IMG/VR virus record: IMGVR_UViG_3300007504_000003
Coordinates: 32,001 to 96,000 of that record
Strand: one strand, 5' to 3'
Source of the DNA: a virus
Length of the DNA stretch: 64,000 nt
The stretch's first letter is position 1. Every line of letters starts with the position of its first letter. Positions 10,650 through 63,657 of the stretch are shown here, one piece after another. The translations under genes and the position numbers were made by a program. The notes below the pieces were generated by a model. It was not told the DNA's origin and did not search any database. It was given only the letters and a program-made list of their open reading frames with translations.

Positions 10650-11036
10650 ATGGCCGAGGTTCCCTACACTAGTTTCGATGAGTTCACGGGGGACGTGTTG
10701 GACTCTGATGTACCTGTCATGGTCCAGTTCACGGCTTCCTGGTGCGGTCCCTGCAAGGCGATGGAGCCTTCACTGATCCAGATCCATGATGTTCTGGTGG
10801 CCTCAAAGACGGGTCGGGTGGTGAAGGTAGATGTTGAACAGGACATGGAGCTGGCTGAGCAGTTTGAGGTCCGGACGGTGCCTACATTCATCCTCTTCTG
10901 GGATGGCGATCCCGTTGATCGTTCTATCGGTGCCGTGGGGATGCAGGGCATCGTAAATCTCTTCACCCGGAATTCTTCCCATGCAGAAGCCCCTGAGTCC
11001 TCTTCAGAGACAGGTGATTCGTCTGGGGCAGGTTGA
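10650..11036 (+). CDS. thioredoxin
   Basis: WCGPC active site, KVDVE, VRTVPTFI. Confidence 0.92.
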   Translation: MAEVPYTSFDEFTGDVLDSDVPVMVQFTASWCGPCKAMEPSLIQIHDVLVASKTGRVVKVDVEQDMELAEQFEVRTVPTFILFWDGDPVDRSIGAVGMQGIVNLFTRNSSHAEAPESSSETGDSSGAG

Positions 11037-11259
11037 GCCTGAGCTGAGATCTGGACTTCTTCAGCTATTGAAAGAGGCTGGGTACAAGGGCAACCCGGAT
11101 GGGAAAGATATCTACCCGAATGAGATAGACCATGGTTACGACCAGCCCCTCGCTGGGGGGACGGACGTAATGAAGCGGCTTCAGGACCGCCTGCTCCACG
11201 AGCAGGGTCGTCCTCCTCGGGACAAGAACCCGGTGCTCAAGGGAGCCTCGAATGAATGA
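10981..11259 (+). CDS. small protein with IRL..PELR..LL tag
   Basis: LQRQVIRLGQVEPELRSGLLQLLKEAG. Confidence 0.6.
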   Translation: MQKPLSPLQRQVIRLGQVEPELRSGLLQLLKEAGYKGNPDGKDIYPNEIDHGYDQPLAGGTDVMKRLQDRLLHEQGRPPRDKNPVLKGASNE

Positions 11260-11887
11260 CGATTTCTGGAAGAGCCTCATGGGCAGCGAGTTCGGTGAGC
11301 GGGATGCTTTCGGCGGTTTCCTTGAGGACGAACCTGTGCCTGAAGCGGGTCTGGAGGCCCTATTCCCTCAGGGAACCCAAGGCGGCCCCCCTGAGGTCAA
11401 CTACTTCAGCGATCACGAGGTAGGTGGGGATTACTTCAGCCAAGTGGTCAACCTGACCGACAAGCTGAAGGAGGCCAACGCGGTCCCGGAGCACCCCCCA
11501 GCGGGGACCCGGGTGCGGTTCAAGGTCAACCTGGGCTCCGTGCTCACCTACGACGATGTGCCCGAAGGAGAGTCCATCGGTGAGGTGGTCACGGTTCGGA
11601 CGGCGGCGGGTGATTTGACGGAGTACAACGGTCTCGTCTTCACCCTCTGGCCTGATGGCAAGGTTCGTCCAATCGCCGCGAATCACTTGTGGTTGGAAGA
11701 GGTCCCTTCGCCCCCGGCTGCGACCAAGCGAGTCGCCAACCTGGGTGATCTCAACGGGTTCCTTCGGGTCGCCGCGGACACCCTGATCAACAAAGCGACG
11801 CGGGATCTCTGGTCTGTCCGGAAGGACGGGAAGGACTTCGTGATCGAGCGTCTCTTCCGCGATGATGGAAACCCCCTGAAGGCTTAG
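11252..11887 (+). CDS. hypothetical protein (SH3-like central region)
   Basis: GTRVRFKVN...IGEVVTV...VFTLWPDG; operon overlap. Confidence 0.6.
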   Translation: MNDDFWKSLMGSEFGERDAFGGFLEDEPVPEAGLEALFPQGTQGGPPEVNYFSDHEVGGDYFSQVVNLTDKLKEANAVPEHPPAGTRVRFKVNLGSVLTYDDVPEGESIGEVVTVRTAAGDLTEYNGLVFTLWPDGKVRPIAANHLWLEEVPSPPAATKRVANLGDLNGFLRVAADTLINKATRDLWSVRKDGKDFVIERLFRDDGNPLKA

Positions 11888-11896
11888 GATTTAGAC

Positions 11897-12115
11897 ATGT
11901 CCTCTCGACCTGACACGACCCTCTGGGATGTAGCCCAGCTCAACGCTGGGAAATCCGCAGACGCCCGGCCTTTCAGTGGTTCTCACAGCAACCGAAGGGT
12001 TGCTTCCGAGGTGGCTCTTCGTCGGAAGGCGATTCGGCTTGCTTCCGTGACGGAGAACCCGGAGCTGAAGACGGCTCTCCTGGGGGAGCTGAGGAAGGAT
12101 ATTCGTCGAGCATGA
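11897..12115 (+). CDS. small protein with IRLA..PEL..LL tag
   Basis: LRRKAIRLASVTENPELKTALLGELRK. Confidence 0.6.
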   Translation: MSSRPDTTLWDVAQLNAGKSADARPFSGSHSNRRVASEVALRRKAIRLASVTENPELKTALLGELRKDIRRA

Positions 12116-12357
12116 GTCTACGAGACCTCATCAATCAAGATACCTCCCTGGCTCCATTTACGGGGTCCAGTGCTCCTCCTGGTTTGACGGAGGAGGAGTT
12201 TCTTGCTCGTCAAGCTTCGGATTCCCAGCACATGACGATGAGTGAGTTGAAGGAGAGCCTGGGCCACCCGGGTCGGGTTGAAAAGGTGGCGGATACGGAG
12301 CGGGGACCCTTTACGGGAGCCTTGGTATATCGGGGGCCTCCTCTCACGACTCGGTGA
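12112..12357 (+). CDS. hypothetical protein
   Basis: ATGA overlap with the previous gene. Confidence 0.55.
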   Translation: MSLRDLINQDTSLAPFTGSSAPPGLTEEEFLARQASDSQHMTMSELKESLGHPGRVEKVADTERGPFTGALVYRGPPLTTR

Positions 12358-12401
12358 GGAGCCTATACCTCTGGTGGAGTTGAGACCTCAGGAGACTCCC
12401 C

Positions 12402-15851: not shown

Positions 15852-16502
15852 ATGCCGAACCCTTCCCTGAACCAGATTCTTGCTAACCTGCCCGCAGGGA
15901 CTCAACGGGTGCAGGTGGTAGACGCCTCTGGGAAGACGAAGTGGAGGGCTCCAGATCAGGTCCGGAAGTCGGACGTGATTGCGATGAAAGGAGGAGCCCC
16001 CGTAGTCATGCGCGGTGCTCCTGGCCGCCCCGCTCGGGTGGAGTTGCCCCCCGCCTCGGACGAGGTCGGAGAGGTATGTCGGCAGAAGAAGGAGGCGATT
16101 CGGGATGACGATCTGCGGGGCAAATTGGCCCGGGACCCCAACCAGGATGTGCTCCCGGTAATCATGCAGGGGATCGCGGAAGAGGCCGCGAGTCTGAAGT
16201 TTGAGCGAGAGGAAGCAGAGCGGCAGGGGGAGCAGACCGCGATGATCTCTTCCCGGCGAGTCCGAGCCCTTACAGCTCTCGGGGATGCCTGGGTCAAGAG
16301 GATGGAGAGGACGGCGACAATCGATCTGGAGGGGGACCAGTTCAAGCTCCTCTTCCGATTCGTTTTGGAGACTTTCCGCGCGGTTTTGGAGGACTCCGGG
16401 GTTCGCCCCGAGCTGGTGGAGACCATCTTCACGAGGATGGGTGAGAAGCTCGACGACGCTTGGAAGGCCGAAGCCCGAGCTAAGATGCGAGGGAAGTCGT
16501 GA
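15852..16502 (+). CDS. probable terminase small subunit
   Basis: Directly upstream of and overlapping TerL; about 216 aa, helical. Confidence 0.45.
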   Translation: MPNPSLNQILANLPAGTQRVQVVDASGKTKWRAPDQVRKSDVIAMKGGAPVVMRGAPGRPARVELPPASDEVGEVCRQKKEAIRDDDLRGKLARDPNQDVLPVIMQGIAEEAASLKFEREEAERQGEQTAMISSRRVRALTALGDAWVKRMERTATIDLEGDQFKLLFRFVLETFRAVLEDSGVRPELVETIFTRMGEKLDDAWKAEARAKMRGKS

Positions 16503-19500
16503 GCCTCGCAGATCTCGCGAGGAATGTCGGGAGGACCACGACCACTCAGGGTCGTGAGGTCGCTGATATCATCACGTTCATCGAGGCTCCCTGGGGCCTC
16601 GACTTCAAGCTGTTCCCCGTTCAGCGGGTCATCCTCAAGGTCCACTACGGACTCGCTCTGGACGATAACGAGTTCGACTATCCGCTAGACGCCCCGGTCC
16701 CGGAAGACCACCCCCATTATGACCCGGAGGTGTTGGACCACGACGGGTACTACAAGCATCGACTCGTCATCTCGGACTGGCAGAGGAAGAACTACCAATA
16801 TCTGACGGAGGCGGGATATCTCCGCTACCTCCACGATGACGGTAGGTGCAATGTCCGAGAGGTCGTCCCCGGGCATGAACGTAGGGAGATGATCCTAAGT
16901 GTCGGAAGACGCTCAGGAAAGTGCTTGAAAGCCGGGTCTCTGGTCCTGACCTCAAAGGGAGTTCTTCCAATCGAGTCTTTGGGAGATCCCGAAGGCCCTG
17001 AACACCAACCCTGTCGGATTACAGTAGCTCAAGAGGGCAGGCAGACCACGGCAGAGTCAGCGTACTTCTATAACGGTGGTGTTCGTGAAATCCGAGACCT
17101 GAAGACCTACTGTGGATTCAGGCTTGGAGGCACACCCAACCATCGCATCAAAGTAATGAGCCCGGAAGGCTTTGTCGTCTGGAAGTACCTGGGGGATGTT
17201 GAAGAGGGCGATTTCGTTGCGATTCATCGAGGGACAAACCTGTGGCCGCAGGAGTATCTCGATGTTTCCCCCTACTGGTCTGACCTGGGTAGGAAAGACC
17301 TGTCTCTCCCGACACATCTGACTGAGGAATGGGGGCTTTTGCTTGGGGCTCTTGTGGGGGATGGCTCTTGGACTCGGGACCGGGTGGTTGAGCTGACAGT
17401 GGCTTGCCCAGAGTTTCGGGTCGAGATGAAGGCCCTGTGGACAAGGCTGTTCGGGGGGTTCAAGGAACAGGGTGTTGGGCACTCCCCGAAGACGACCAGA
17501 ATTCAGTTTCATAGCTTGGGGGCTCGACAGTTCCTCCACGACCTCGGGTGGGTCTACGACGCAGATCGTCGCTCCAAGATGGTCCCCTGGTCTGTCATGC
17601 AGTCTACGGCTCCTGTCGTTCGGGCTTTCCTCCGAGGTCTATTTGAGACTGATGGCGGGATGGAGTCCAACGGGAAGGTGGTCTCTTTCTGCTCCGCCAG
17701 CGAGCGTCTTGCCCATGAGGTTCAGACCCTCTTGCTGAACCTGGGGATCGTGAGTCGAATCCGGGCCAAGTGGAATAAGACCTATGAGCGGAACTATTAC
17801 ATCCTCATTGTCCGAGGGCTCCGGCATAGGCAGATGTTTGCGGAGCGAGTGGGATTCGTATCCCGACGCAAGATGGAGCCTCTCTGGGCGGGTCTGAAGT
17901 CTTCCAGTCGAGAGGGTGGGAATTCGGAGTCCATTCCATACCTCCGTGAATGGGGCTCAAAGCTGTTAGCCTCAGTCCCGACCAGTAAGCCGGGACAAGG
18001 GTGGTCGCGGTCTGACCTGCGGGGGGTGATGGGGAACACCATCAAGCCCAGCTCGACAGAGCAGATGACCTATCCGCGTCTGGAGAAGACGTTGGCAGAA
18101 GCTCGGCGGCTGGGGGCTGACCAGGAAATCGTCCAACACCTCCAGGAGATTTACGACCTCGACTATTTTTTCGACCCTGTGGTCTCGGTTGAGCAGGGTG
18201 AGGAAGCGGTCTACGACCTAAATGTCCCTCAGGGGTCCATGTTCGTTGCCAATGGGATGACGAACCACAACACGACAATATCTGCCTGCATCGCAGCTTA
18301 TGAGACCTACAAGCTGCTTTTGAAGGGGGACCCTCACCGGTACTACGGGCTGCCTCACTCCAACGTCATCCAGCTTATCAGCGTCGCGACGGATAAGGAT
18401 CAGGCGGGGCTCTTGTACCGTGAGGTCGCCGGGCACTTCAAGTCCTGTGACTTTTTCTCGCCGTACATGGCGAACAACACCATGTCATACGCGAACTTCC
18501 AGACGCCGTATGATATCGACCAGTATGGGAGCTACGCGGACGATCCCAAGGCCCGCTCCAGCATCAAGATCACGTTCCGCTCTTGCGTGGCGAAGGGGCT
18601 GCGAGGAGCAGGTAATATCCTGGTCATTCTGGATGAGGTGGCTCACTTCACGGACGCGGGCCAGTCCGGCGCGGACGAAGTCTATCAGGCGGTGACCCCC
18701 TCTACTTCTGCTTACTCCCCGAAGGACCCGGCGGATAAGCGGCTCCCGATTGGAGAGGTGGAAGGTCGGATTATTCTGATCAGCTCTCCTCTCGGTAAGA
18801 CCGGGCTGTTCTATGATCAGTACACCCTGGGGTTCCAGCCTGGACCCTCGGAGAACATGATCTGCGTTCAGGCTCCCACCTGGGAGGTGAACCCGACAAT
18901 CCCGGCTCATGAGTTTGAGAAGCACTACCTGAAGGACGTCCGGGTCTTCTTCACGGAGTACGGGGCGGTCTTCAGTGACCGGACACGAGGCTGGATTGAG
19001 AACGAGGACGACCTTCTTGCCTGCATAGACCCCGCCCGCAGGCCCAGGTTCCGAGGTCGGAGCCGGTTCCCGCATTACCTGGGCTTCGACTTCGCGATGG
19101 TGGGCGACGCCTCCGCTGTCGCTATCGGCCATGTCGAAGATCGAAACGTCGTCGTGGATTTTGTGGACTCGATCCAGGCAGGAGAGGGTCAATACGCGGA
19201 CGTGGATCGTCTTCGGATGGAGTGGGTCGCGGATTGGTTGAAGGATCTGAGTCAGCGGTTCTACCTCGTCAACGGGATGTTTGACCAGTGGGCTGGGCTC
19301 CCGTTGGAGCAAGCTCTGGAAGACCGGGGCCTGACTCAAATCAGGGCGGAGCACTTCACGGCTCCGTTGTCCTCTCGGATCTACCGCAACTTCTACAACA
19401 TGATGCAGGAGCGGAGGGTTGTCCTCTATGACTGGCCTCGCCCCGTAGATGAGCATGGGATTGAGCAGCACTGCCCTTATATCGCGGAGATGCTGACTCT

Positions 19501-19828
19501 CCAGGCGGAGCATAAGAGCAAGTATGTCACGGTGGTAGAGGCTCCTCCTGGGCGGGACAACCACGATGACCTCTCGGATGCTGTGGTTCGGATGGTGTGG
19601 CTGGCCTCTCAGTCCATCGGAGAAGGTCGGCATCTCGCGACGGGGGGTGGCCCACGTCCAGGTTCGTTGAACAGGCACCCGAATCCCGGATCCCTGTCCC
19701 GAGCACGCCGTAAGGCTCTCCTGGGTGGGAGTTCCCTGAAGCGTATGGATCCCCGTAAGGCGAGGGCGGGGGGGATGAGTCCATATCGGGGGCTGGTGAT
19801 GGTCTCCCACAAGAAAAAGAAGAGGTGA
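16499..19828 (+). CDS. terL: terminase large subunit containing an intein
   Basis: Spliced Walker A GRRSGK/T, Walker B VILDEVAHF, ISSP coupling motif, nuclease GFDFA...D; about 659 aa after splicing. Confidence 0.92.
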   Translation: MSLADLARNVGRTTTTQGREVADIITFIEAPWGLDFKLFPVQRVILKVHYGLALDDNEFDYPLDAPVPEDHPHYDPEVLDHDGYYKHRLVISDWQRKNYQYLTEAGYLRYLHDDGRCNVREVVPGHERREMILSVGRRSGKCLKAGSLVLTSKGVLPIESLGDPEGPEHQPCRITVAQEGRQTTAESAYFYNGGVREIRDLKTYCGFRLGGTPNHRIKVMSPEGFVVWKYLGDVEEGDFVAIHRGTNLWPQEYLDVSPYWSDLGRKDLSLPTHLTEEWGLLLGALVGDGSWTRDRVVELTVACPEFRVEMKALWTRLFGGFKEQGVGHSPKTTRIQFHSLGARQFLHDLGWVYDADRRSKMVPWSVMQSTAPVVRAFLRGLFETDGGMESNGKVVSFCSASERLAHEVQTLLLNLGIVSRIRAKWNKTYERNYYILIVRGLRHRQMFAERVGFVSRRKMEPLWAGLKSSSREGGNSESIPYLREWGSKLLASVPTSKPGQGWSRSDLRGVMGNTIKPSSTEQMTYPRLEKTLAEARRLGADQEIVQHLQEIYDLDYFFDPVVSVEQGEEAVYDLNVPQGSMFVANGMTNHNTTISACIAAYETYKLLLKGDPHRYYGLPHSNVIQLISVATDKDQAGLLYREVAGHFKSCDFFSPYMANNTMSYANFQTPYDIDQYGSYADDPKARSSIKITFRSCVAKGLRGAGNILVILDEVAHFTDAGQSGADEVYQAVTPSTSAYSPKDPADKRLPIGEVEGRIILISSPLGKTGLFYDQYTLGFQPGPSENMICVQAPTWEVNPTIPAHEFEKHYLKDVRVFFTEYGAVFSDRTRGWIENEDDLLACIDPARRPRFRGRSRFPHYLGFDFAMVGDASAVAIGHVEDRNVVVDFVDSIQAGEGQYADVDRLRMEWVADWLKDLSQRFYLVNGMFDQWAGLPLEQALEDRGLTQIRAEHFTAPLSSRIYRNFYNMMQERRVVLYDWPRPVDEHGIEQHCPYIAEMLTLQAEHKSKYVTVVEAPPGRDNHDDLSDAVVRMVWLASQSIGEGRHLATGGGPRPGSLNRHPNPGSLSRARRKALLGGSSLKRMDPRKARAGGMSPYRGLVMVSHKKKKR
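16922..18271 (+). mobile_element. intein with LAGLIDADG homing endonuclease (450 aa) in TerL
   Basis: Starts CLKAGS, ends THN-type NHN/T; LLGALVGDG and FLRGLFETDG motifs. Confidence 0.92.
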
Positions 19829-20102: not shown

Positions 20103-20426
20103 ATGCCAACACGAAGCCACGCCCGCAATGCCCCGAATGAGCGAGAGAAGCGTCTTCTTGTTCATCTGGTGCGTGCTCAGAGAGAGCTGGACTCCGCTCT
20201 GAGGCTTTGTCGGGAGGCTGCTCGTCGCGATGAAAATCCCGAGCGGAAGAAGGCTTATCGGAGAATGTCCGTGAACCTGATGCGTCTACACAGGCAGGTC
20301 AGTGAGATTCAAGGGACTCATCGGATTCAGGATCCGGTGTCCCCGGCGACCCCTCCCCTGAGTCGGGATGCGTTTTCGAGTCTGGTCCGTGGGGTTCAGG
20401 CAGACCTTGGGGTGACTGATGGCTGA
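20103..20426 (+). CDS. hypothetical helical protein
   Basis: ORF overlapping the portal start. Confidence 0.5.
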   Translation: MPTRSHARNAPNEREKRLLVHLVRAQRELDSALRLCREAARRDENPERKKAYRRMSVNLMRLHRQVSEIQGTHRIQDPVSPATPPLSRDAFSSLVRGVQADLGVTDG

Positions 20427-23400
20427 TGAACCTACGACAGGCTCGGGGTCTCCCCCGGGTAAGCCGCCACGTCGTCTCGCGTCGATGGGTCCGGATCTGT
20501 CTGAGCAGGAGGGAGTCCCGGTGAGTCGAGTGAAAGATCGGAGCAAGGTCCGAGTCGGCAAGCCGAAGAGGCTCGTCCGGGCTTCCTCGATGCGAATGGG
20601 CTACAGCAGCTCAGGGCTCGGGTCGGCCAGCACTGTGGATGCGGCTCACGGGAACTACTACCACCCGGAGCTGAGCACCGATTTTCTGGAGCTGCCCCAG
20701 AGTCAGCAGGAGCAGTGGAACTTTTATCGGCACTTCTACCGGTCTCATCCCTTCGTGGGGCAGGCGCTTGATCTCCATACGGAGTTGCCTCTGTCGAAGG
20801 TCCGGATCTCGCCTCCTAAGGCGAGGAACCGGGATTTGGCGATGGCGGCTTCGCGGTTCTGTACTCGCTGGGCACAACGAATCAAGCTGCTCTCTCGTCT
20901 CAGGGAAATCGTCCACGAGTATCACCTGTTGGGCGTGGTGAACATCTACGCAGAGGATACCTCTCCGGATATGCCGGATGAGGTGCGGTTCCGTTCGGAC
21001 ACGTACCTGGAAGAGACTCCAGATGGAGAACCGCTCCTCAGGACAGAGCGACGGCTCCGGGAGGACGCCAACGAGCGTGCCGTTGCGTGGTTGAAAAAGA
21101 ACTACAAGGGGTGGACAGCCCTGCGGGTTCTTCCACCTGAGCAGGTGGATGTAGAGAGCTTCCCTTTCACTGATGAGAAGCTGTTTAGTCTCCGCCCAGA
21201 CAAGCGGACTTTGACCCTGGTTGACCGGGCTCGTGGGGGGGATCGTCGAGCACGTCGGGTGTTGGAGTCCATGCCTGTGGAGGTGGTCAAGGCTCTACAG
21301 GATGGGGAGGCTATCCCTCTCAACACGGATCCGGACGCCGGCTCCTTCATCTACCACATGGAGCGAAAGCGGTCGCAGTACGAGAACCGCCCCCACAGCA
21401 TGTTGGAGCGGTGCATCCTCCCAGGCACCCCCATCACGGTTCTTCGGAACAACACCATACTTGAAGTACCTGTCGAGCTGGTCAACGTCGAGACCGATCT
21501 CCTGCTCACGCATACCGGAGCCTTTCATAAGGCTGAAGCAGGCTCCCGCCCTGTAGCGGAGGACATTACTGTTCTTTGGCTCGATGGCGAAGACCGTCCC
21601 CTATGCCTCACCTCAGACCACCCGCTCCTCCGTCTTGACGACGACAGTTCTGAGAAGTGGGTTTACGCCGGGAATCTCAAGGAAGGTGACACCCTCCGAG
21701 AAGCCCACCCGGTCCCTACTTCAGGACACCCTGAAGTCATCGATCTCGCTGCTTGGTGGGAGAATAAGGGCTCGCTTCAGGTTGAGCGTCGAGTTCGGGA
21801 CAACCAGCAAGGTCTGGTTGTTGACACCACCCGTGAAGTTCGGGTAGCCGAAGTCATGGCGGATGAGGAGGGCCTTACGGTCCACTTTGAGCATGACCAG
21901 GACGATGTAGGACGTGTCAGAACCGTCGAGAACGACCGGCGACTTACTCGTTGGCTCAAGTCCCTCAAAGAATCAAAGACGGCGTCCTCGACGGCTGTGG
22001 CCGCCGTTACGGGGCTCACCAAGTCCGAGGTCCAGAACGCTGTCCGTCGTTTCGAGAGAGATGTGCCTGCCTTCCATCGGACAGTCGAGGGGCGAAAGGT
22101 CACTTGGTACCCTCTCCCGGAGACTGCCACCTCCCCAGGCTCAGTCGTCACCAGAACAGAAACCAGCTCTATTCACCAGATCCCGCTCACCCCCGATTTC
22201 ATGTACCTCCTGGGTACATGGTTCGGAGATGGTTGGGCTTGGAAGGCAAAGGGCAAGTTCCTCAACACAGTTTGCCTTGCTTGGTCTATCGATAAGAACG
22301 CCGACAAGCTCCGGTCTCGAATCCGAGACCACCTGGAGACCTTCTTCGGGGCAGATTCCGTGGTCGAGGGCAACCTGTTCTCTGGTTCCGGCTCCTCTAC
22401 AGAGAATCTCCGGGTTGAAGATTCCTTGTTGGCTCGGTGGTTTTACGAGGAGTTCGGAGGATCGGCTCAGACCAAGACAGCCCCCAAGTGGGTGTTCGAC
22501 CTTCCTGAGCAGCACATCTTGTCCTTCCTCCAGGGTCTTCTGGACACCGATGGTTTCTGTCGAGCAGGCCGGGTCTCGACTGCTCTGGTTCAACTGGACA
22601 ACGAGACTCTCATCCGTCAGGTCCATCTGCTATGCAGCCGAGTCGGGATCAAAACACAAGTGAGACCTGTTCGCCGGGAAGCCCGCAGTTGGACACGCAC
22701 CTGGGTGACGACGGAAGGGGTTCAGGAGAAGACTTACGACTACGAGCCTAAGACCTTCTGGCAGGTGTCCTGCACCCGACATGAGGATGTTCTCAAGTGG
22801 GTCTCCGGGACCATCAAGGGTGCCGAGGTCAACTGGCCGGAGAGGAACCACTCCTGGGGGAGCCCGTTCCAAGACGGGTGGCTGACCCGGAAGGTCAGGA
22901 AGGTCGAGACCGTCTGGTACGAAGGGCTTGTCCACTCTTTTGACGTTGAAGTAGATTCGAGCCTTGTTGCTCTAAGTGTCTGTATTCACAACTGTATTCG
23001 GACGCTCGTCCACCAGGATAAGTTGCGACAGGCAAATGCTTCTATCGCCTCTCGGCATATGACTCCGGTGAGGATCGTCTGGGCGGAGGATATGGACGCC
23101 GCGGACACGGAGGCTCTTCGCGATCAGGTCGATATGGCTCTCGCGGATCCAGATTTCTCCATCGTGGCGAACTTTGAAATTCGCTGGGAGGAGATGGGGG
23201 GAGGACAGGGGAACCGACTCCTTGAGACCTCCCAAGAGTATGACCGGGCGGATCGGGAGCTGTACGCCGGCCTCAGTGTCACCGAGTCTCTTCTGACAGG
23301 AGAGTCAACCTACTCCGCCGACAGGACGAGCCTGGAGGTTATCAACACCCGATACATGTTCCTTCGGGAGTTCCTTCAGGACTTCGTTCAGGACTGCCTA

Positions 23401-23787
23401 TTTGAGCCCATGTGCCGTCGAATGGGTTTTATCGAAGAGGATGAAGATGGGGAAGAGGTGGTCCTGACTCCGCTTCTGAGCTTCACCCGGTTGGGCATCC
23501 GGGACACTCAGGACACCTTCGACGCCTTCATGAATCTCTACCAGAAGGGTTCACTCCCGGTGGAGACCATCTATGAGTTGCTCAACATCGATCCGGTGAC
23601 CGCGACTGAGAAGCTCAAGGAGGACTCCATGACGCTTCGGGACGCGACCTTCAACGAAGTCTTCCGAGGTCTCTATAGCGAGGTAGCTCGACAGTTGGTT
23701 GAGGGCTCTGACGCCGTGGATAAGATCGCGAAGATTCTGGGGCTGGAGTACGAGAAGCCGAAGGAGGACTCTGGAGGGAGGTTCTAA
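20419..23787 (+). CDS. portal protein containing an intein
   Basis: Follows terL; FYRSHPFVGQALDLHTELPLS helix, acidic C-region; about 595 aa after splicing. Confidence 0.78.
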   Translation: MADEPTTGSGSPPGKPPRRLASMGPDLSEQEGVPVSRVKDRSKVRVGKPKRLVRASSMRMGYSSSGLGSASTVDAAHGNYYHPELSTDFLELPQSQQEQWNFYRHFYRSHPFVGQALDLHTELPLSKVRISPPKARNRDLAMAASRFCTRWAQRIKLLSRLREIVHEYHLLGVVNIYAEDTSPDMPDEVRFRSDTYLEETPDGEPLLRTERRLREDANERAVAWLKKNYKGWTALRVLPPEQVDVESFPFTDEKLFSLRPDKRTLTLVDRARGGDRRARRVLESMPVEVVKALQDGEAIPLNTDPDAGSFIYHMERKRSQYENRPHSMLERCILPGTPITVLRNNTILEVPVELVNVETDLLLTHTGAFHKAEAGSRPVAEDITVLWLDGEDRPLCLTSDHPLLRLDDDSSEKWVYAGNLKEGDTLREAHPVPTSGHPEVIDLAAWWENKGSLQVERRVRDNQQGLVVDTTREVRVAEVMADEEGLTVHFEHDQDDVGRVRTVENDRRLTRWLKSLKESKTASSTAVAAVTGLTKSEVQNAVRRFERDVPAFHRTVEGRKVTWYPLPETATSPGSVVTRTETSSIHQIPLTPDFMYLLGTWFGDGWAWKAKGKFLNTVCLAWSIDKNADKLRSRIRDHLETFFGADSVVEGNLFSGSGSSTENLRVEDSLLARWFYEEFGGSAQTKTAPKWVFDLPEQHILSFLQGLLDTDGFCRAGRVSTALVQLDNETLIRQVHLLCSRVGIKTQVRPVRREARSWTRTWVTTEGVQEKTYDYEPKTFWQVSCTRHEDVLKWVSGTIKGAEVNWPERNHSWGSPFQDGWLTRKVRKVETVWYEGLVHSFDVEVDSSLVALSVCIHNCIRTLVHQDKLRQANASIASRHMTPVRIVWAEDMDAADTEALRDQVDMALADPDFSIVANFEIRWEEMGGGQGNRLLETSQEYDRADRELYAGLSVTESLLTGESTYSADRTSLEVINTRYMFLREFLQDFVQDCLFEPMCRRMGFIEEDEDGEEVVLTPLLSFTRLGIRDTQDTFDAFMNLYQKGSLPVETIYELLNIDPVTATEKLKEDSMTLRDATFNEVFRGLYSEVARQLVEGSDAVDKIAKILGLEYEKPKEDSGGRF
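21412..22992 (+). mobile_element. intein with LAGLIDADG homing endonuclease (527 aa) in portal
   Basis: CILPGT...CIHN/C; YLLGTWFGDG and FLQGLLDTDG. Confidence 0.9.
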
Positions 23788-25602: not shown

Positions 25603-28600
25603 ATGAATCAGCATGTTCAGGTCGCTGCGGAGCTTCGCCGTCGCATGGGGAGTCTGGTGTATACCAGCTCGGGTGTGTTGTATGTCCTGACACCCGAGAC
25701 GCTGGCTCAGTTGTCTGAGGGTGACCAATGGGTCGGGCTGGTGTCTTCGGACGATCTGGAGGGGGCTCACCGGCTTGTAGAGCACTGCGGCGGGGGTGTA
25801 CTCCGGGAGCCTTCGTCGGGGACCTATGCGGTAGAGACCGTTGCCAAGTGGGGTCGTGTAGGGGCTCAGGTCGGGACTGATACCGCCGCGGTCTGGGCGA
25901 TTGCTCCGGAGCAGCTCCATCATTTTATCGAAGATGAGGGGCTCGCTGGCCTGGATTGGCAGGTGTGGGCGAATCGCTGGGAGGATCTGGAGTCGTCCTG
26001 GCGTGCTCATGGCGGCGCCGTCTTTCATACGGGTGGGGACGGGGGGTTTGAGGTTGAGGTTGAGGGAGCGGTGCGTAGTCTGGGTTTGACTCGCCCCTAC
26101 GGTACCCCGCAGTACCGGGAGGCTGGCTGGTGGGCGATCACTCCAGAGGACCCTGGAATCAACCCGCCGCCCGTGGATAAGGGCGGCCTCATGAACGCGG
26201 TCCCTGGCGTCGATCCTGATGAAGGGGCGTTGTATAACGGGGACGGCCCAGCGGACATGATGGAGGCAGTCCTCGATGAGATCGACATGATCTATCGAGA
26301 GGCGTGGGGTCGTGGGGCCACCGTGGCGGAGATGGATGCCGTCTGGGAGTTTATCTTTCGCGGGTACCGGAAGGGAGCGAAGGCGTCGGGCTGGAATGTC
26401 TGGGTAGACAAGGCGGTCGAGTTGACCGGCGTTCCAATGAAGGTTCTCCTCCTTTGTCTGGACGAGTCGAGGACTCGGGACGCTGTTCGCCTTTGGCGTG
26501 AGGGGTCTGAGCGCGGGGACTTTACGGGGTTCGGGGAACATATCAAGGCGTGTGTCAGTCTCGCCTGGGATGATTCTTCTTTCATGATGGAGCAGCTTCC
26601 AGCGAAGCCGGATTCGGTCAAGTTACTCCTGGCTCGCCAGTACCGGCAGGCGTTTGATGAGGAGCGTTTGACGGAAGCTGGTAAGGCGATCGAAGGGTTC
26701 TCTCTCGGGATGGCTCTGGCAATCACGCAGGGGTTTGTGAGCACCCACCCGTTCTTCGACCTGGGGGAGATCCGACGATTCATCCAGATCCGGAAGAAGT
26801 ACCACGGGGTGTTTACGGCAGCCGCCGCTGTGCTGGCGGAGTATTTCGGGGACGCCCCTCGATTCCAAGCCGCTATCCCGGGTCTCAGGCGGATCTCTAT
26901 CATGCCCCCGGCTCAGGTTCGGGGAGCCTTGTCCGCGGGCGTTCAGGCATTCCGGTCGCTAGGTCGTGTTCGGGTGTCGGACCTCCCCGGGTACGAGTAC
27001 CAGTCTCCTCCGCGATTGGTAGTTCAGTCCTTCGTCGCGATTCACCGAGCCTTGCGGCTCTCGGGTCTTGAGGAGCGGGGGGACTACTACCGGGCATTCT
27101 CGGACCTGGAGACCCTTCTGGACGTCTTCCTCCGGAGTCGTTCGACTCCCGCCCCCGTGAAGACTCTCTTCCGTAAGCTGAAGCTGCTGGGCATCCCCAG
27201 GGACAGCGCAGACGTGCTCCACTTCGACGCAGACCCCGGGGCTTGGTTTGACCTGACTTCGGACCAGAGAGCGGGAATCCGTAGAGAGGTTCTCGGCCTC
27301 CAAGATGAGCTGTCCTCGTTGTTCACTCGGGACATGGACGTGGAAGAGCGTTCTGCGGAAGCAAAGCGGCTGATGGGGGCGTTGTCGCAGATTCAGGCCC
27401 GAGCCGGCATCCACCTTGCTCATCTCATGGAAGAGGACCAACCTCCTCTGGACAAGGTGCTTCGATCCGAGGCTCAGGTGAACCGGGACGGGCCGACAGA
27501 ATACGTCTTGGATTCGTTCAAGAAAGACCTCCTTTCCTCCTGGGAGGAGAGCCCCTCTTTCCGGCCGAAGCTCCTCAGTAAGCGAGAGTTGGGGAAGCTG
27601 TTCACGACGCTGGACAAGGTGAAGACGTTCTCGACGATGGAGCGGGTGATCAAGACTGCGGTTCGTCGTGGTCTGCTCCATAAGACCGCTCTGGAGACGC
27701 TGACGAGCAAGCTGGATAAGGCTCGTCGAAACAAGGCTCTTCGGGACAATCCTGTCCTGGCCCCTCTCCAGTGGGAGCCGATGACGGAGCAAGAGTTTGT
27801 CGCGGCTCATGATGCGGGAGGCGTTGATTTCCGAGGAGATGCTTGGACTGAGGAGCAGAAGGCAGAGGTGCTGGGCCGGGCGAGCCGGGCGATTGTGGAC
27901 TTGGAGGGCGTCTTCGGGAAGGGGTTCTGCGGCAGGCACGCCAGGAAGTTGATGTTCCGGTTCCACGAGGGCTCCGGGACGGGGTCGGGAGCCCTCGCTC
28001 ATTACTTCGGGTGGGAGGATCGGAATCGCTGGCAGCCTCGGGTGAGCTTCGGGGAGGATTTCGACGGGCTATTAGCCCACGAGCTGTCTCATTACTTTGA
28101 AGACCTCCTGGCCTTCCGGATTGAGAAGGCGACCAACCCGGACATGCCAGAGTACCAGTATGGGGACGTAGCCCATGGCTGGGGAGACCTCTTCGGGAGG
28201 ACGGGGACCTCTCTCCGTCAGTTTGTGGAGAGGTCGGGCAATAGCACGATGGGGAAGGCTCTTCAGGAGCACTTCCCGGAGTTCTTGGAGCTGATGGCGA
28301 CGGTGGTGTCCACGCCCGATTATGCTCGGTGGGAGGACAAGATCGGCGGTGCCCTCAGTGACGCTCTCTATGAGGCGATCACTGAGGTGACGGGTCAGAG
28401 CCCCTATGCCGAGGGCAACGAGCAAGCTCGTGGTTGGATGGATGCTCAGTACCAGTCAGACCTCCCTCCGGAGGTACTGGAGGCAGCCAAGCGGAGGGCG
28501 ATTCGGCTACGGGATGGGGATCCGCGGAAGCTTACCTACTACCACTCCTCCCCAGAGTGCTGGGCTCGGCTCTGCGAGCAGTATGTCTACACGAAATTGG

Positions 28601-29346: not shown

Positions 29347-29365
29347 TTGGTTCGTATAGAGGGAC

Positions 29366-30634: not shown

Positions 30635-30643
30635 GTTCTCTAT
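30631..30643 (+). promoter_or_regulatory. putative late promoter motif TA-N6-YTAT
   Basis: GTAGGTTCTCTAT upstream of 30658. Confidence 0.5.
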
Positions 30644-30657
30644 CTCAGTGGGGTGAT

Positions 30658-31782: not shown

Positions 31783-31791
31783 TTCCTCTAT
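31779..31791 (+). promoter_or_regulatory. putative late promoter motif TA-N6-YTAT
   Basis: CTAGTTCCTCTAT upstream of 31806. Confidence 0.5.
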
Positions 31792-31805
31792 GTGGGGAGG
31801 CTAGC

Positions 31806-46949: not shown

Positions 46950-46959
46950 GAGTCTACTC

Positions 46960-48276: not shown

Positions 48277-48464
48277 TTTGATTGCGTCCCCCTGGGGCGG
48301 CGAGTTTCGCCTCAGGGGAGCGTGAGCCCCCTCGGGATGGGCTGAAAGTCTCGATAACATGTAAATACGACAAACATGTATAGGTGAACCCGGTCGGTCT
48401 GAGCGGGTGAATCAAACTCAACCCCCTCTCCCCTGTAAACAGGGAGCACGAGCCCGGAGAAATC

Positions 48465-49140: not shown

Positions 49141-50016
49141 ATGGCAAAGGTAAGCAACGCTGTCAAGCAGCGGATCATCAGCGAGTACATCAAGACCCCC
49201 CGCGGTCGTGCTCGCCTCGCAGCCTCCATGACGCAGCCCCTCCGGATGCGTCGGGACTACTCGGCGGTCGGTCGCAAGACCTTCCTCGTCGAGGATCTCC
49301 CCGATGGAGCCCTCCCGATCTACGACAAGGATCCGGAAGTCACCGCCTACGTGGTGGGCGAGGAAGGTGAGAACATCCTCGCCATCCAGAAGCCGCGTCG
49401 GGTGCTCTTCCCCCTGTTCGAGATCGCGTCGAACCCCGAGATCCCGCTCACGCAGATCAAGGAACGCCGGTTCGACATGATCGACCGGGCCCAGGTGCTC
49501 GCGAAGTCGCAGGTCCAGGCCGCCGAGGACGAGCGTGTCTTCGCCGTGCTGGACGCCATCGCGACCAACGGCTTCGACTCCGTGGCGGGCGGCACCAACG
49601 CCGATATCCCCGTCATCGCGCCGCTGTCCGCCGCGGTCATCGCTGACGCGATGGGTCTCGTCGAGCGGCACGACCTCCACGCCGCTCGGATCTACATGAA
49701 CCAGCGGGACTTCACGGATATCCGGAAGTTCGGCCGCGACGTGTTCGACCCCGAGAGCCAGCGGGAGCTGGTCCGCACCGGCCTCGTCGGCACCATCTAC
49801 GGCTGCCAGATCGTGACCTCCCGCCTCGTCCCGGTGGGCACGGTGTACGTGTGTTGCGATCCCGAGATGTTCGGCCGCATCCCCGTCCGCACCGAGCTGA
49901 CGGTGCTCTCGGCCGACGACCCGAAGGCCCGGACCATCGGCTTCAGTATTTTCGAGAACCTCGGTCTGGGTGCCTACAACCCCCGGGGCCTCGCTCGGAT
50001 GACGATCACTCGCTGA
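49141..50016 (+). CDS. major capsid protein (HK97 fold)
   Basis: 291 aa; GAGGAGGG RBS; position; GTIYGCQIVTSRLVPVG C-terminal pattern; followed by a strong hairpin. Confidence 0.82.
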   Translation: MAKVSNAVKQRIISEYIKTPRGRARLAASMTQPLRMRRDYSAVGRKTFLVEDLPDGALPIYDKDPEVTAYVVGEEGENILAIQKPRRVLFPLFEIASNPEIPLTQIKERRFDMIDRAQVLAKSQVQAAEDERVFAVLDAIATNGFDSVAGGTNADIPVIAPLSAAVIADAMGLVERHDLHAARIYMNQRDFTDIRKFGRDVFDPESQRELVRTGLVGTIYGCQIVTSRLVPVGTVYVCCDPEMFGRIPVRTELTVLSADDPKARTIGFSIFENLGLGAYNPRGLARMTITR

Positions 50017-50181: not shown

Positions 50182-52083
50182 TTGATTACCGAAGAAGAAT
50201 TACGGCGTCTCTACTGCGACGATTTGAAGTCCGAACAAGAGATTGCGGAAGCCTTTGGCACCTATCAGGTGAAGGTGGGTCGGCTTCGCCGCAAATTTGG
50301 TATCCCGACCATCAGTAAGGCCCAACGACTTGAACGTCAGTTGCCACCTTTGACGACATTCCAGGTGGAACTCCTGGTGGGTTCGCTCTTGGGTGACGGG
50401 CACATGAAAGAGTCGAGTAGGGCTTCAGCTCGGTTTATCGAACGTCATGGAGAGTCTCAGGCTCCCTACCTCATGTGGAAAGCGGGCTTGCTGGGTGACT
50501 ACATCTCCAGCACCTACCCCACCGTGAAGCGGCTACCTGACGGTCGCGAGTTTCATGGCATGGAACTGAACACTAAAAGTTGCCCCCAGCTCCGAGGGCT
50601 GTTCGACTTGTTTTACCAGAGCGGGAAGAAGGTGTTTCCCGCCAGTCTCCCAGATCTGATGACACCAATGGTTTTGGCGGTCTGGTACCTGGACGATGGT
50701 TCCTTAGCCTCTAACTATCACCCCAGGATTCACTTCGGTCTCGGCTCCAGAAGCCTCAAACGGGCTGTGAAAGCCCTGAGGCGGTTGGGTCTGAAACCAG
50801 ATCATCGTGGTGAGAATGGGGACCAGATGATTTCGTTCCCAGGACAGGGCAGGAAGTTCTTTGACTTGGTCCGGCCACACATCCCAGATTGTATGAGCTA
50901 CAAGGTCCCCAGGACGGATTCACCTCGTCGTGTTCAGGACCGGAATGCGTCTCAGGTGACCCCTGAGATGGTGGGCCGGCTTTACTCTGATGGGATGTCT
51001 TTGGGTGCCATCGCCCGACGATACGGGGTGGGCCGCTCCACAGTCCATCGTCGTTTGAAAGCCGTGGGTGCTACACCACGTCGGATGGGGAGGCCCAGAG
51101 CCGGATACACGGTGGAGTCCGCTACTGTCCTCCTCGGAAATCTCGATCCGATTCTGGGTACTGACCAGTTGCTTGAGGAAGCCTTGCGGATCCTCAAAAA
51201 GACTCCGTTTCCTTTCCCGGCTCCGATGGACGAGACGGAGGCTCACAAGGAGCTGGCTCGGGTTCAGAAGTCCAAATCCGGGATCACTTCCTGGACCCCT
51301 GTTGGGGTGCGGGTGTGTAACAGCCTCTTCCCCAACAGGTACAAGGCTACCTACAAGAGCAACGTCTCTGCGTGGGAGGGCTGGCATGACGAGAAGCACC
51401 TTCGTAGGGCGATCAGGTTCCAGGTTCGGGTGGGAGATCCGGTCATCCCGAAGAGAGTTTTGAGAGCCTTGACCGCCAACTGTCGGACGCCCTCGGTCTT
51501 CCGTCCCGTGGTAGCCAGATACCTGTACGAGACCTACTGCCCCTCTGGTGGGGTGGTCTGGGATCCCTGCTCAGGGTACGGTGGGCGGCTCCTGGGGGCT
51601 CTCGCGGCGGGTGTTGGGAAGTATATCGGGACGGACGTGGAGCCTGAGACAGTGGGGGGGAACCGTCGTTTGGCTGCTCTCCTGGGCATGGAAGACCGGG
51701 CTGAGATTCATCTGAACCCCGCTGAGACGTTTGATCCCGGTCCTGTGGACTTGGTCTTTACGTCCCCTCCCTACTTCAACCTGGAGCTGTACGGGAGATC
51801 GCGGGATCAATCGTCGGTGACGAATTCTGGTTTTGAGGAGTGGGTCTCTGGGTTTCTGGTTCCGGTCCTCGTCACGGCGTACAGGAGGCTCCCAGATGGC
51901 GGTGTGTTGGTCCTGAACGTCACCGATGTTCGCCAGGGTAGGAAGACCTTCCCCCTGGTCGAAGCAGCCATCAGGGAGGCTGTGACGGCGGGTTTCAAGC
52001 ATGAGGACACCCTCCGGATGCCTTTGGCGAGCTTAAACCGGAAGAACGCCTCGGAGCCTTTGCTGGTGTTCCGACGACGATGA
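50182..52083 (+). CDS. HTH + LAGLIDADG endonuclease + HTH fused to amino-DNA methyltransferase
   Basis: LVGSLLGDG and LAVWYLDDG; MTase motif I WDPCSGYGG, motif IV FTSPPY; one continuous ORF. Confidence 0.85.
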   Translation: MITEEELRRLYCDDLKSEQEIAEAFGTYQVKVGRLRRKFGIPTISKAQRLERQLPPLTTFQVELLVGSLLGDGHMKESSRASARFIERHGESQAPYLMWKAGLLGDYISSTYPTVKRLPDGREFHGMELNTKSCPQLRGLFDLFYQSGKKVFPASLPDLMTPMVLAVWYLDDGSLASNYHPRIHFGLGSRSLKRAVKALRRLGLKPDHRGENGDQMISFPGQGRKFFDLVRPHIPDCMSYKVPRTDSPRRVQDRNASQVTPEMVGRLYSDGMSLGAIARRYGVGRSTVHRRLKAVGATPRRMGRPRAGYTVESATVLLGNLDPILGTDQLLEEALRILKKTPFPFPAPMDETEAHKELARVQKSKSGITSWTPVGVRVCNSLFPNRYKATYKSNVSAWEGWHDEKHLRRAIRFQVRVGDPVIPKRVLRALTANCRTPSVFRPVVARYLYETYCPSGGVVWDPCSGYGGRLLGALAAGVGKYIGTDVEPETVGGNRRLAALLGMEDRAEIHLNPAETFDPGPVDLVFTSPPYFNLELYGRSRDQSSVTNSGFEEWVSGFLVPVLVTAYRRLPDGGVLVLNVTDVRQGRKTFPLVEAAIREAVTAGFKHEDTLRMPLASLNRKNASEPLLVFRRR

Positions 52084-55122: not shown

Positions 55123-55947
55123 ATGAGATCTCTGCGTTCTAGCGTCATCCGGCTGGCTGCTTCCTTGGAAGCAGGAGACCCGCTTCGGGGTCATCTTGTA
55201 GAGGCAGCAGCGGGCTTTGAGGAGTTGACGAGATTCAATTTCTCTTCCGTCTTGCAGTCCTTAGTGGCTCAGATGCTCCGAGAGAACACGGGTACGCTCT
55301 ATGTAGTGGACGATGACGGCGTCACCTCGGAGCGGGCTTTGAAGGACAAGTTGGACGAGGCACTCTCAGGTGCCTCGGTTCGGCCTACTTCCGGTATGTG
55401 GACCGGCCGGGGGCCTAAGCCCCGGAAGCCGACTCTTCCTCGGGTAGAGGGGTTCAAGGCTCGCTATGAGCAGCTCTTGGATGCGGAACGTATGGACTGG
55501 AGGAACAAGACGGTAGAGGTGCAGGCTATCCGGTCACCCAGGACTCGGAGGCCCGGGTACAGGGTCACCTGGGAATTCAAGCGTCCGGCTGCCCAGCCGA
55601 TGCAGTCTCTTGATTTCCGTCGCCTTGTGACGATCCACTATGGTTCAGGTCGAGAAGCTTTTCAGCAGGTTCTCCCTGAGATTTTGAGGTACCTGAGCAG
55701 TCAGCGGGGCGTACAGGTTGTTCGGGAGTCGGCTCCCGTGGCATTCACTTATGAGGGAGAGGAGTTCGGGCTTCACTTTTCTGTCAACGCTTACGGGAGC
55801 AACAACGTGCTCTCGATCGTTCGTCCCGACCCTCATGAGGTGATTTCTCTTTCCGTGCTGGGTCACTGGTCGGTGCCCACCCTCGGGGACCTCCCGAGGG
55901 TGGTCTGGGAGGAGTTCGTCAAGAACCTCGCGGCTAAGAACCGCTAG
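55123..55947 (+). CDS. hypothetical protein with N-terminal IRLA tag
   Basis: LRSSVIRLAASLEAGDPLRGHLV. Confidence 0.65.
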   Translation: MRSLRSSVIRLAASLEAGDPLRGHLVEAAAGFEELTRFNFSSVLQSLVAQMLRENTGTLYVVDDDGVTSERALKDKLDEALSGASVRPTSGMWTGRGPKPRKPTLPRVEGFKARYEQLLDAERMDWRNKTVEVQAIRSPRTRRPGYRVTWEFKRPAAQPMQSLDFRRLVTIHYGSGREAFQQVLPEILRYLSSQRGVQVVRESAPVAFTYEGEEFGLHFSVNAYGSNNVLSIVRPDPHEVISLSVLGHWSVPTLGDLPRVVWEEFVKNLAAKNR

Positions 55948-61805: not shown

Positions 61806-61814
61806 ATTCTCTAT
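61802..61814 (+). promoter_or_regulatory. putative late promoter motif TA-N6-YTAT
   Basis: ATAGATTCTCTAT, one mismatch to the 15231 site. Confidence 0.5.
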
Positions 61815-61847
61815 AGGGCTTCGTGGTTGAAGCCTTGGAGAATCCGC

Positions 61848-62501
61848 ATGAGTGGCCTGCGTCGAGCTATCATCCGTTTGGCCGCTTCTACGGCGGAGGC
61901 TGACCTCAAGAGCGACTTGCTCCGGTTGGTCGCAGCTCCCGCAAAGGGAGGGCTGTACCTCCGTCCCCAGAACCCGCGTGTTACCGAGAGGTGGAGTGCC
62001 CTTCTGGGTCGAATCCTGTACGATAAGTATGGGTCTGGGGTTGTGAATATCCCAGATGTGTCCCTAGTGGACACGGATCACGGGGAAGAAGTCTTCGTGG
62101 ACATGTACGGGGTCGGGATTTCGGTCAAGAGCCACACCACTGTCCTGGCTTTGCTCGGGGTTAGCTTCTACGATGAGAAGTCTGGGATCGAGGCGGTCAA
62201 GACACTCCAGAAGGATCCGCGTCACCCCCCGCTAGGCTTGTTTCGCGCAACCAAGTATCGCAGCACCCGCGTCTATCCTCCGATGAAGGAGGTCCCCCAG
62301 GGGGGTTCGTCCTACAGAATTCGGGGGGACAAAGTGCAGGTTTCTATAAATCCTGACCGGATTTACGTCAGCGGATCGACGTACCCGATCAAGGATGACC
62401 TCCGGAGTATGGGGTTTCGCTGGGATCGAGACCGCAAGGCGTGGTGGCTGGATGCCCGCCGGTATGACCGAGGCGTTGAGCAGCGCCTCAAGGCAATGTA
62501 G
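61848..62501 (+). CDS. protein with N-terminal IRLA tag and C-terminal GxTYP.KD.L...GFRWD...W domain
   Basis: LRRAIIRLAASTAEADLKSDLL. Confidence 0.65.
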   Translation: MSGLRRAIIRLAASTAEADLKSDLLRLVAAPAKGGLYLRPQNPRVTERWSALLGRILYDKYGSGVVNIPDVSLVDTDHGEEVFVDMYGVGISVKSHTTVLALLGVSFYDEKSGIEAVKTLQKDPRHPPLGLFRATKYRSTRVYPPMKEVPQGGSSYRIRGDKVQVSINPDRIYVSGSTYPIKDDLRSMGFRWDRDRKAWWLDARRYDRGVEQRLKAM

Positions 62502-62510
62502 GGGAGAGCG

Positions 62511-63200
62511 ATGCCCGGTGGAGCAGTCAAGACTCCCGCAGATGAGAAGCGGTGGAGCCGAGCCAAGGAGATCTTCAAGGAGCAGAAGGGCCGAGACCCG
62601 GAGGGGGATGACTATGCCCTGGTCATGCACATCTTCCAGGGGATGAAGCGGACCAAGCATGTCCCCGGTCAGAAGAAGAAGGCTCTCACGGATCTTCGTC
62701 GGGCGGTGATCCGGCTCGCGGCTTCTGAGCCGCAGGAGAGCCCCCTCCGGAAAGCTCTCCTCGCCTCCATGTATGGTCCTGCTCCGACAGAGCGAGTCTC
62801 CCGGCCGAAGGAGGTGAGGAATCCTCGGCCCCTTCGGTACCACAGGTCCAATCGTGATTTTGTGGAGATCAAGAAGGCGGTGGAGGGTTCCATCGTTTTC
62901 TACCAGGAGGAAGACCCGCGGTTCTCCAGCAGCCGACCTGACCCGGAGTTTGACTATCTCATGGTTCTGGCTCACTACCAGAACCCACGACACGGGGTTC
63001 ACTACGTGTGGGAGATGTTCGACCTGGATTCGGACAGCGGGGAGCCTATCTGGGAGGAAGAGGAGGAGGAAGATCCTCGTCGGTGGTGGAGTGTCCAACA
63101 GGCGTGGAAGCACGCTACGGATTCCGCTATCGACACCAGGAACGACCCAGGCGACCCACCGGACTCCTATTTCGAGCAGGGGTCTTACTACAGCTTCTAG
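62511..63200 (+). CDS. ChaB-like N-helices + IRLA tag + acidic domain
   Basis: DEKRWSRAKE...YALVMHIF; LRRAVIRLAASEPQESPLRKALL. Confidence 0.6.
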   Translation: MPGGAVKTPADEKRWSRAKEIFKEQKGRDPEGDDYALVMHIFQGMKRTKHVPGQKKKALTDLRRAVIRLAASEPQESPLRKALLASMYGPAPTERVSRPKEVRNPRPLRYHRSNRDFVEIKKAVEGSIVFYQEEDPRFSSSRPDPEFDYLMVLAHYQNPRHGVHYVWEMFDLDSDSGEPIWEEEEEEDPRRWWSVQQAWKHATDSAIDTRNDPGDPPDSYFEQGSYYSF

Positions 63201-63213
63201 CTGAGGTGTTGAG

Positions 63214-63657
63214 ATGGCGAAGGAAACTCTCCGTAGGAGAGCGATTCGGGTCGTGAAGGCTCAGCCGGTGGGGTCACCCTTGCGGCGACACTTGCTCGCA
63301 GCCCTGAAGCAGAGCTACGAGCCCTACCGGGAGTATGAGGATCATTATGAGGATGTGGAGCAACCATTCCCGAGCCGGCTAGCCCCCACTCGGGTGTCTC
63401 CGACCTCCTATCATCGTCGTCAGCGGGAGTTTCAATCCGTCGCTCGGGCGTGGAAGGGTTCCATCAGCTACGGGAGAAAGCGGGACGACTACTTCCTTTT
63501 TCTGGTGGTCTATGAGGACGGGGTCTTCTGGGAAGCCTTTCAAGATGGCGTCTGGGATGGGCCCGTGTTCGATGACAGCTACGACAACGACAGGCCGGAG
63601 TCGGTCTGGAGGCGGGTGGTGACGTCGGTGCTGGAAGACGACGGCTACGACTTCTGA
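63214..63657 (+). CDS. protein with N-terminal IRLA-like tag
   Basis: LRRRAIRVVKAQPVGSPLRRHLLAALKQS. Confidence 0.6.
   Translation: MAKETLRRRAIRVVKAQPVGSPLRRHLLAALKQSYEPYREYEDHYEDVEQPFPSRLAPTRVSPTSYHRRQREFQSVARAWKGSISYGRKRDDYFLFLVVYEDGVFWEAFQDGVWDGPVFDDSYDNDRPESVWRRVVTSVLEDDGYDF

Follow-up and report, generated by a model that had tools for sequence, protein, structure and literature searches.

A portable tag, predicted to fold as a helix-loop-helix, on otherwise unrelated proteins of one huge-phage lineage

Why should a phage place the same short peptide on a set of small proteins that share little else? The question is raised by a 64,000-base stretch of viral DNA (bases 32001-96000 of the 126,159-base record IMG/VR IMGVR_UViG_3300007504_000003), here called the window and analysed over its full length, in which an original prediction had picked out six open reading frames (ORFs) with a common helical motif and proposed that the motif is a portable module. 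We find that this tag is, by structure prediction, a folded helix-loop-helix mini-domain, and that it represents a large, virus-only and undescribed family which is absent from the domain databases searched. We suggest that it could be a handle by which proteins dock to a shared phage partner, with the head as the leading destination of the proteins that carry it, a reading to which we give a little under an even chance.

All six copies lie in plus-strand ORFs at the positions originally given for them (11002, 12017, 55132, 61857, 62694 and 63229), and the translations and hidden Markov model (HMM) searches agree on this. We number the proteins T1 to T6, which is not to be confused with the bacteriophage T4 discussed below. 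In T1 (92 residues; 10981..11259) the tag core, at 11002-11061, is near the N-terminus, while in T2 (72 residues; 11897..12115) it is C-terminal (12017-12082) and is preceded by the RVAS-like remnant that the original prediction had described. T3 (55123..55947; core 55132-55200) and T4 (61848..62501; core 61857-61922) are tagged N-terminally; T3 has 274 residues from ATG 55123, with GTG 55108 also possible, and T4 has 217 from ATG 61848, and these likely starts place the tag at residues 4-5 of both. The C-terminus of T4 is weakly DUF5710-like. The tag of T5 (229 residues; 62511..63200) is internal (62694-62762) and follows an N-terminal module of 58 residues, and that of T6 (147 residues; 63214..63657) is again N-terminal (63229-63297). 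The T5 module (62511-62690, KRWSRAKEIF...YALVMHIFQGM) matches no family.

An HMM of the six copies finds three more outside the window, for a total of nine in the 126-kb record: one at genome 97216 (plus strand, E 1e-7), in a protein of 136 residues that we call T7, one at genome 122307 (plus strand, E 1e-3), and one at genome 120210 on the minus strand, which is of the canonical type described below. In seven of the nine proteins the tag starts at residue 3-8, counted from the likely ATG, the other two being T2 and T5. The public call of the T7 gene (window-equivalent 65216-65626), P0165 with 116 residues, begins inside the tag and clips it off, and automated annotation may under-report the tag.

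Several controls bear on how well defined the motif is. A regular expression for the first helix, run over six frames, matches the six copies and one unrelated site. When each copy was omitted in turn, the HMM built from the others regained it at E-values of 9e-9 to 4e-3 (6e-4 for T1 and 8e-6 for T2), ranking right behind the training copies; ten residue-shuffled sets of all 2,395 six-frame ORFs gave best E-values of 0.02-0.87. All-against-all BLASTP shows T5 and T6 to be paralogues (27% identity over 160 residues, E 3e-11) and the tag to be the only common part of the other tagged pairs in the record. The claim that the rest of each protein is unrelated is therefore correct for those other pairs but not for T5 and T6. 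Identical tag residues are encoded by the same codon in just 34% of cases, and the mean nucleotide identity of the coding DNA is 53%, which argues that the tag is under selection at the protein level and is not a DNA repeat.

The tag comprises about 30-35 residues, with a helix of ~12, a loop of 6 and a second helix of ~11, and is moderately basic. About ten positions are more than 90% conserved across carriers; the conserved residues are four hydrophobics and two Arg in helix 1, an Ala, a Leu-Pro-x-Gly, the Arg-Arg/Lys that opens helix 2, and a Leu within helix 2, which together give the tag its Pro-x-Gly turn and four conserved Arg/Lys. N-terminal tags have a mean net charge of ~+4, and acidic residues are frequent in the loop and just past it. 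After helix 2 the canonical form has Ala (66%) and Gly (67%), and the window subtype has no fixed small pair. Structure prediction, proposed when the motif was first noticed, yields a helix-loop-helix in both proteins modelled with AlphaFold2. In P0033, a carrier of 87 residues with little beyond its two tags, the helices are at residues 6-17 and 24-34 and at 57-68 and 75-86, with predicted local distance difference test (pLDDT) values of 80-94; in T7 they are at 3-13 and 20-31 (pLDDT 73-86), ahead of a confidently modelled alpha/beta body, and the mean pLDDT is 85. Foldseek searches with the P0033 and T7 models returned nothing meaningful.

How widespread is this element? When 5.8 billion proteins were searched with a profile of all nine copies, metagenomic proteins came up that have a close and better conserved motif, the canonical consensus of which is M-K-x-LTASDRxALIRLAASLPxGSxERRAILAGL. 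Eight of the nine copies in our record form a divergent subtype, and the ninth, at genome 120210, is canonical. When the profile is made from the relatives' tags only, the canonical copy at genome 120210 reaches E 5e-15, and four copies of the window type, namely three of the six in the window (T3 at 8e-5 among them) and the one at genome 97216, come out at 8e-5 to 2e-3; the four other window-type copies are missed, and shuffled sequences got to 1e-4. For this reason the link of the window subtype to the canonical family rests mainly on the reverse search and on hybrids such as the C-terminus of P0059, in which a window-type first helix is joined to a canonical loop and second helix.

Searched exhaustively, 1.84 billion representative sequences yielded 1,397 matches at E<=1e-3 to a profile that included some non-tag columns and that admitted one false positive among the top matches. 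A tag-only HMM finds the tag in 157 of the best 158 matches; the false positive of the wide profile is P0024, a nematode protein of 7,596 residues, and with its rejection three tags is the maximum seen per protein. In these best 158 of the 1,397, a sample in which proteins with several tags are over-represented, as the scores of their tags are summed, we count 133 N-terminal, 88 internal and 39 C-terminal tags, with one to three copies per protein, so that 127 of 260 copies are internal or C-terminal. The frequent layouts are N-terminal, N-terminal plus internal, N-terminal plus C-terminal, and all three together, with a median of 165 residues between tags. A Met is found just ahead of 41 of the 127 non-N-terminal tags, as expected if tag-led genes fuse into multi-tag proteins.

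The bodies joined to the tag have little to do with one another. Hundreds of unrelated carriers, and the members P0166-P0179 of the T7 body family, which have unrelated N-termini and no tag, support the original view of a portable module on otherwise unrelated proteins; the untagged homologues of the T7 body mean that the tag is portable. The tag gave no match when the nine tagged proteins were compared with Pfam and PHROG, nor did it in ten multi-tag carriers, and PDB sequences contain no match either. The alternative raised with the original prediction, that the motif might be a known DNA-binding or generic domain, thus finds nothing in its favour in Pfam, PHROG or PDB sequences. The bodies of 101 carriers have only stray Pfam domains, for example one ADP-ribosyltransferase and one pentapeptide-repeat protein. 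A tblastn search of 50,697 deposited phage records with two carriers found none, and the sole match in 185,579 prokaryotic species genomes is one 5-kb contig of a metagenome-assembled genome. Carriers are named 'hypothetical protein' throughout the databases, a literature search with the motif string gave a chance match only, and a language-model atlas gave no usable match.

The IMG/VR contigs that bear tags, from which all gene neighbourhoods of relatives were drawn, come from relatives of this phage: their replication genes are 30-65% identical to those here and conserved in order, their terminase and portal are 55-68% identical, and their capsid protein is ~76% identical. They have 5-9 tags per contig of 34-205 kb. 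CheckV estimates four contigs of 113-205 kb to be 25-46% complete, which implies genomes of ~450 kb. A stand-alone C39-like cysteine peptidase, encoded outside the window (genome 5365-6372) and bearing an RVADRWL motif ahead of a strongly basic tail, is kept in 32 viral contigs (57-71% identity), the largest of 536 kb. Among these, a 297-kb contig (67% complete) has 23 tags, and three contigs that are complete or nearly so, of 536, 316 and 290 kb, have two, none and two, respectively. This range of 0 to 23 copies indicates that the tag is an expansion in one huge-phage lineage, not a core feature of the wider group.

What, then, would the tag be for? It is far better conserved than anything joined to it, which is why we think of a docking handle, and a short module that is near-invariant on hundreds of unrelated bodies suggests a common binding partner. 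That the tag is a handle which binds one conserved phage-encoded partner seems to us an evenly balanced proposition. Binding would be through the wide hydrophobic face and the conserved arginines, and would gather many interchangeable proteins at one place. That this place is the inside of the assembling head is a more tentative suggestion, which we regard as possible rather than probable. There the tag would grip the core of the scaffold or the coat protein on its inner face, as the helix-loop-helix of the P22 scaffold grips coat, and tagged proteins would be packaged and delivered with the DNA, as the internal proteins of bacteriophage T4 are by way of their capsid-targeting sequence.

The capsid-targeting sequence of bacteriophage T4 has about 10 residues, is strictly N-terminal and is removed by the prohead protease. 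As in IPI, IPII, IPIII and Alt of that phage, we see a short conserved N-terminal peptide on diverse, fast-evolving accessory or anti-defence proteins of one lineage; the T4 sequence is the only conserved part of the diverse internal proteins and directs them to the scaffolding core and thereby into the head (PMC3012670). Our tag differs in being a hairpin of ~30-35 residues, folded according to the models, that is also found internally and C-terminally and in up to three copies per protein; the two have no sequence similarity, and copies of the window subtype are not followed by any conserved cleavage motif. The coat-binding domain of the P22 scaffold, gp8, is at the C-terminus. It is a helix-loop-helix of ~30 residues that anchors to the inner capsid surface by the charge of conserved basic residues in its second helix (PMC9965877, PMC9962691), holds the coat protein through two basic residues (PMC9965877), and loads foreign proteins into P22 capsids when fused to them (PMC9965877, PMC9962691). 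The tag too is a helix-loop-helix of ~30 residues in the AlphaFold2 models, and its conserved Arg/Lys at the start of helix 2 would be compatible with coat binding. However, a PDB search shows no sequence relation, the best Foldseek E-value is 1, and the scaffold-like protein of this phage (46960-48276) has no detectable tag.

Two further observations favour the head. Some carriers are of the type of phage polyvalent proteins, a class for which packaging is predicted (Iyer, Burroughs, Anand, de Souza, Aravind 2017, PMC5512222): they are long and multi-domain, with ParB-like, ADP-ribosyltransferase or pentapeptide domains, and in the present phage the genes from portal to protease encode an array of proteins of this kind. 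Most carriers differ from polyvalent proteins in being small and single-body, and no Pfam LPD family matched the tagged proteins or the 101 carriers. The second observation is one of gene order. T1 and T2 are interleaved with genes 9318 and 11252, the homologues of which directly follow the portal gene in two relatives, and homologues of the genes around T1 and T2 flank the terminase and portal genes in relatives. T3-T6 are 5-14 kb downstream of the capsid gene.

A number of findings weigh against docking in the head. The complete 316-kb contig shares the C39 peptidase yet lacks tags, which indicates that the tag is not part of a shared core assembly machinery. The divergent subtype, to which eight of the nine copies belong, occurs beside a capsid protein that is ~76% identical to that of the relatives, and this would be awkward if the capsid were the partner. 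In the relatives, tagged genes are inserted within the replication module and spread over more than 100 kb, a placement that does not suggest strictly late expression. A tag HMM finds no tag in the portal-to-protease array of this phage, and in two relatives for which portal and scaffold could both be located, the interval separating them is likewise free of tags. A stretch of the scaffold-like protein (46960-48276) that was considered as a tag homologue was rejected, with an hhalign E-value of 0.07 and a probability of 0.8%.

Two other resemblances to head proteins were set aside. The capsid N-terminus (window 49141-49260, RARLAASMTQPLRMRR) resembles the window subtype, but it is conserved along with the whole protein, independently of the tag subtype, and is unscored by the HMM; we judge the likeness to be chance. 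A motif common to T1-like bodies or P0123 and the scaffold N-terminus was not significant by BLASTP.

That the tagged genes are 'late', as originally stated, is an assumption. The hexamer TATAGG occurs at 22 sites in the record, against ~40 expected, and 10 of the 22 are intergenic although only 9% of the sequence is non-coding; sites include window 1616, 41794, 48379, 52622, 55070 and 61812. It may be the core of a phage promoter. It often takes the form CTC-TATAGG-G, which recalls the start site of promoters for single-subunit RNA polymerases. TATAGG is found ahead of T3, T4 and the tagged gene at genome 122307, but clamp, replication and head genes have it in front of them too. As it stands ahead of all of these alike, we rejected it as a marker of timing, and no promoter class sets the tagged genes apart from other genes.

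The scatter of tagged genes among the relatives' replication genes would fit a tag that acted away from the virion altogether, as a docking or oligomerisation module whose hairpins pair with one another or join a replication or host-takeover hub and so build accessory complexes in the infected cell. A two-helix hairpin cannot bury its wide hydrophobic face alone, and many proteins are tagged at both ends, both of which would be natural for such a module. However, AlphaFold2 packs the two tags of P0033 without confidence (predicted template modelling score, pTM, of 0.37), so that packing of tag on tag within one chain was rejected. We think such a module unlikely, if less so than the explanations that follow.

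The four conserved Arg/Lys and the mean net charge of ~+4 could instead point to nucleic acid. The tag would then be a non-specific binding hairpin, resembling a helix-hairpin-helix, that tethers effectors or polyvalent proteins to phage DNA, with several copies raising avidity; the multiple copies in many proteins and the ParB-like, weakly winged-helix or DUF5710-like parts of some carriers would fit. Nevertheless, the Gly-hydrophobic-Gly signature of such hairpins is absent from the tag, acidic residues are common in and just after its loop, and the nine proteins have no helix-hairpin-helix, ribbon-helix-helix or helix-turn-helix match in Pfam at E<=1 and none among PDB sequences. Moreover, the window copies begin 3-8 residues ahead of helix 1, which leaves little or no room for the strand of a ribbon-helix-helix. 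This makes nucleic-acid binding an improbable explanation.

The tag might also have no common partner at all. It could be an element that serves to stabilise or to link, neutral in effect and quick to spread, and multiplied in one lineage by duplication, fusion and cassette exchange. Its lineage-specific expansion (0 to 23 copies per contig), the T5 and T6 duplicates and the evidence for gene fusion would fit such an element. Against this, about ten positions remain more than 90% conserved over hundreds of unrelated proteins while synonymous sites drift, which means strong selection on the tag itself, and T7 has acquired the tag although its body family is normally untagged. We consider neutrality slightly more improbable still than binding to nucleic acid.

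The explanation that fares worst makes the tag a recognition and cleavage leader for the C39-like peptidase or the prohead protease, fencing off the units of polyproteins and being removed from single-domain proteins. The record does encode a C39-like peptidase, domain-sized units are bracketed by tags, the Met ahead of 41 of the 127 non-N-terminal tags is as in fused tag-led genes, and in three relatives a tagged gene is just upstream of the peptidase homologue, each with a different body, so that the tag is the only part common to the three. The tag also resembles double-glycine leaders of C39 peptidases in being an amphipathic N-terminal helix on diverse products with a C39-like peptidase gene in the same genome, and differs from them in lacking an ABC transporter, consistent linkage to the peptidase and a Gly-Gly, Gly-Ala or Gly-Ser pair at positions -2/-1 of a cleavage site, and in having internal and C-terminal copies. 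We consider it very improbable, since the adjacency holds at only 3 of 32 C39 loci (at a fourth the ORF ends 9 nt before the gene, but its tag is 1.7 kb upstream), 25 of the 32 have no tag within 6 kb, the complete 316-kb contig has the peptidase and no tags, no site of the Gly-Gly type exists (the Ala-Gly that follows helix 2 is conserved to only ~66%, and the window subtype does not have it), and tags at the extreme C-terminus would make no sense as leaders. The link between tag and peptidase that the three adjacent genes had prompted was rejected on the 32-locus test and the tag-free contig.

Returning to a docking handle, we note that it may not be the only label in use. A motif resembling RVAxRWL (KKVAIEWLEG, RRVAxxYQEY, RVARLYL) recurs beside the hairpin tag in carriers from the relatives, often either ~10 residues ahead of a tag that is C-terminal or immediately behind one that is N-terminal; examples are P0015, P0063, P0114, P0147, P0160, P0021, P0039 and P0155. 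This recurrence suggests that the two tags belong to one shared vocabulary. A bolder scheme, which we think unlikely, is that in these ~450-kb phages the hairpin would be a general cargo address to the procapsid interior, with dozens of swappable effectors per genome, and RVAxRWL an independent second label on the portal-to-protease enzymes, so that two classes of injected cargo would be sorted by two codes.

If the tag is an address label, sequence alone would mark about a thousand unknown huge-phage proteins as delivered to one place. This would provide a catalogue of candidate injected effectors and anti-defence factors, and a small natural handle with which to load foreign proteins into large capsids. 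Whatever its function, the tag is a mini-domain that is well defined, under strong selection and confined to viruses, and none of the domain databases searched contains it.

The window around the tagged genes has a GC content of ~60%, and most of its genes are on the plus strand. It encodes a PD-(D/E)XK nuclease (window 162), a sliding clamp (1770) and a clamp loader (6016), followed by a large terminase (16499-19828) and a portal (20419-23787) that are each split by an intein. The terminase has 1,109 residues here, compared with ~640-654 in relatives, the gap being residues 143-592, and the portal has 1,122 compared with ~571, the gap being residues 333-856. The array of large multi-domain enzymes at 25603-41694 includes LPD1, 2'-5' RNA ligase, CCA/poly(A) polymerase-type and topoisomerase IB domains, with LPD1 in the untagged neighbour at 25603-29346. 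It is followed by the head protease (42888-46949), the ORF of which has two Hint regions and a LAGLIDADG insert. Inteins or homing-endonuclease inserts therefore break up three head-morphogenesis genes, those for terminase, portal and protease.

The scaffold-like protein (46960-48276), encoded between the genes for protease and capsid, is acidic, contains some four DPDEALLQQMLAEE-like repeats and probably is the scaffold. Its first 130 residues, a KAAKCIRLA stretch included, are nearly invariant among relatives. An antisense ORF opposite its gene (46954-48360) misled a simple gene call based on GC content at third codon positions (GC3). The major head (capsid) protein is encoded at window 49087. 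The ORF right after the capsid gene (50182-52083) joins a LAGLIDADG endonuclease to a resolvase-type helix-turn-helix and to the first part of an N6/N4 DNA methylase domain; it probably represents a mobile element inserted into a methylase gene or next to one.

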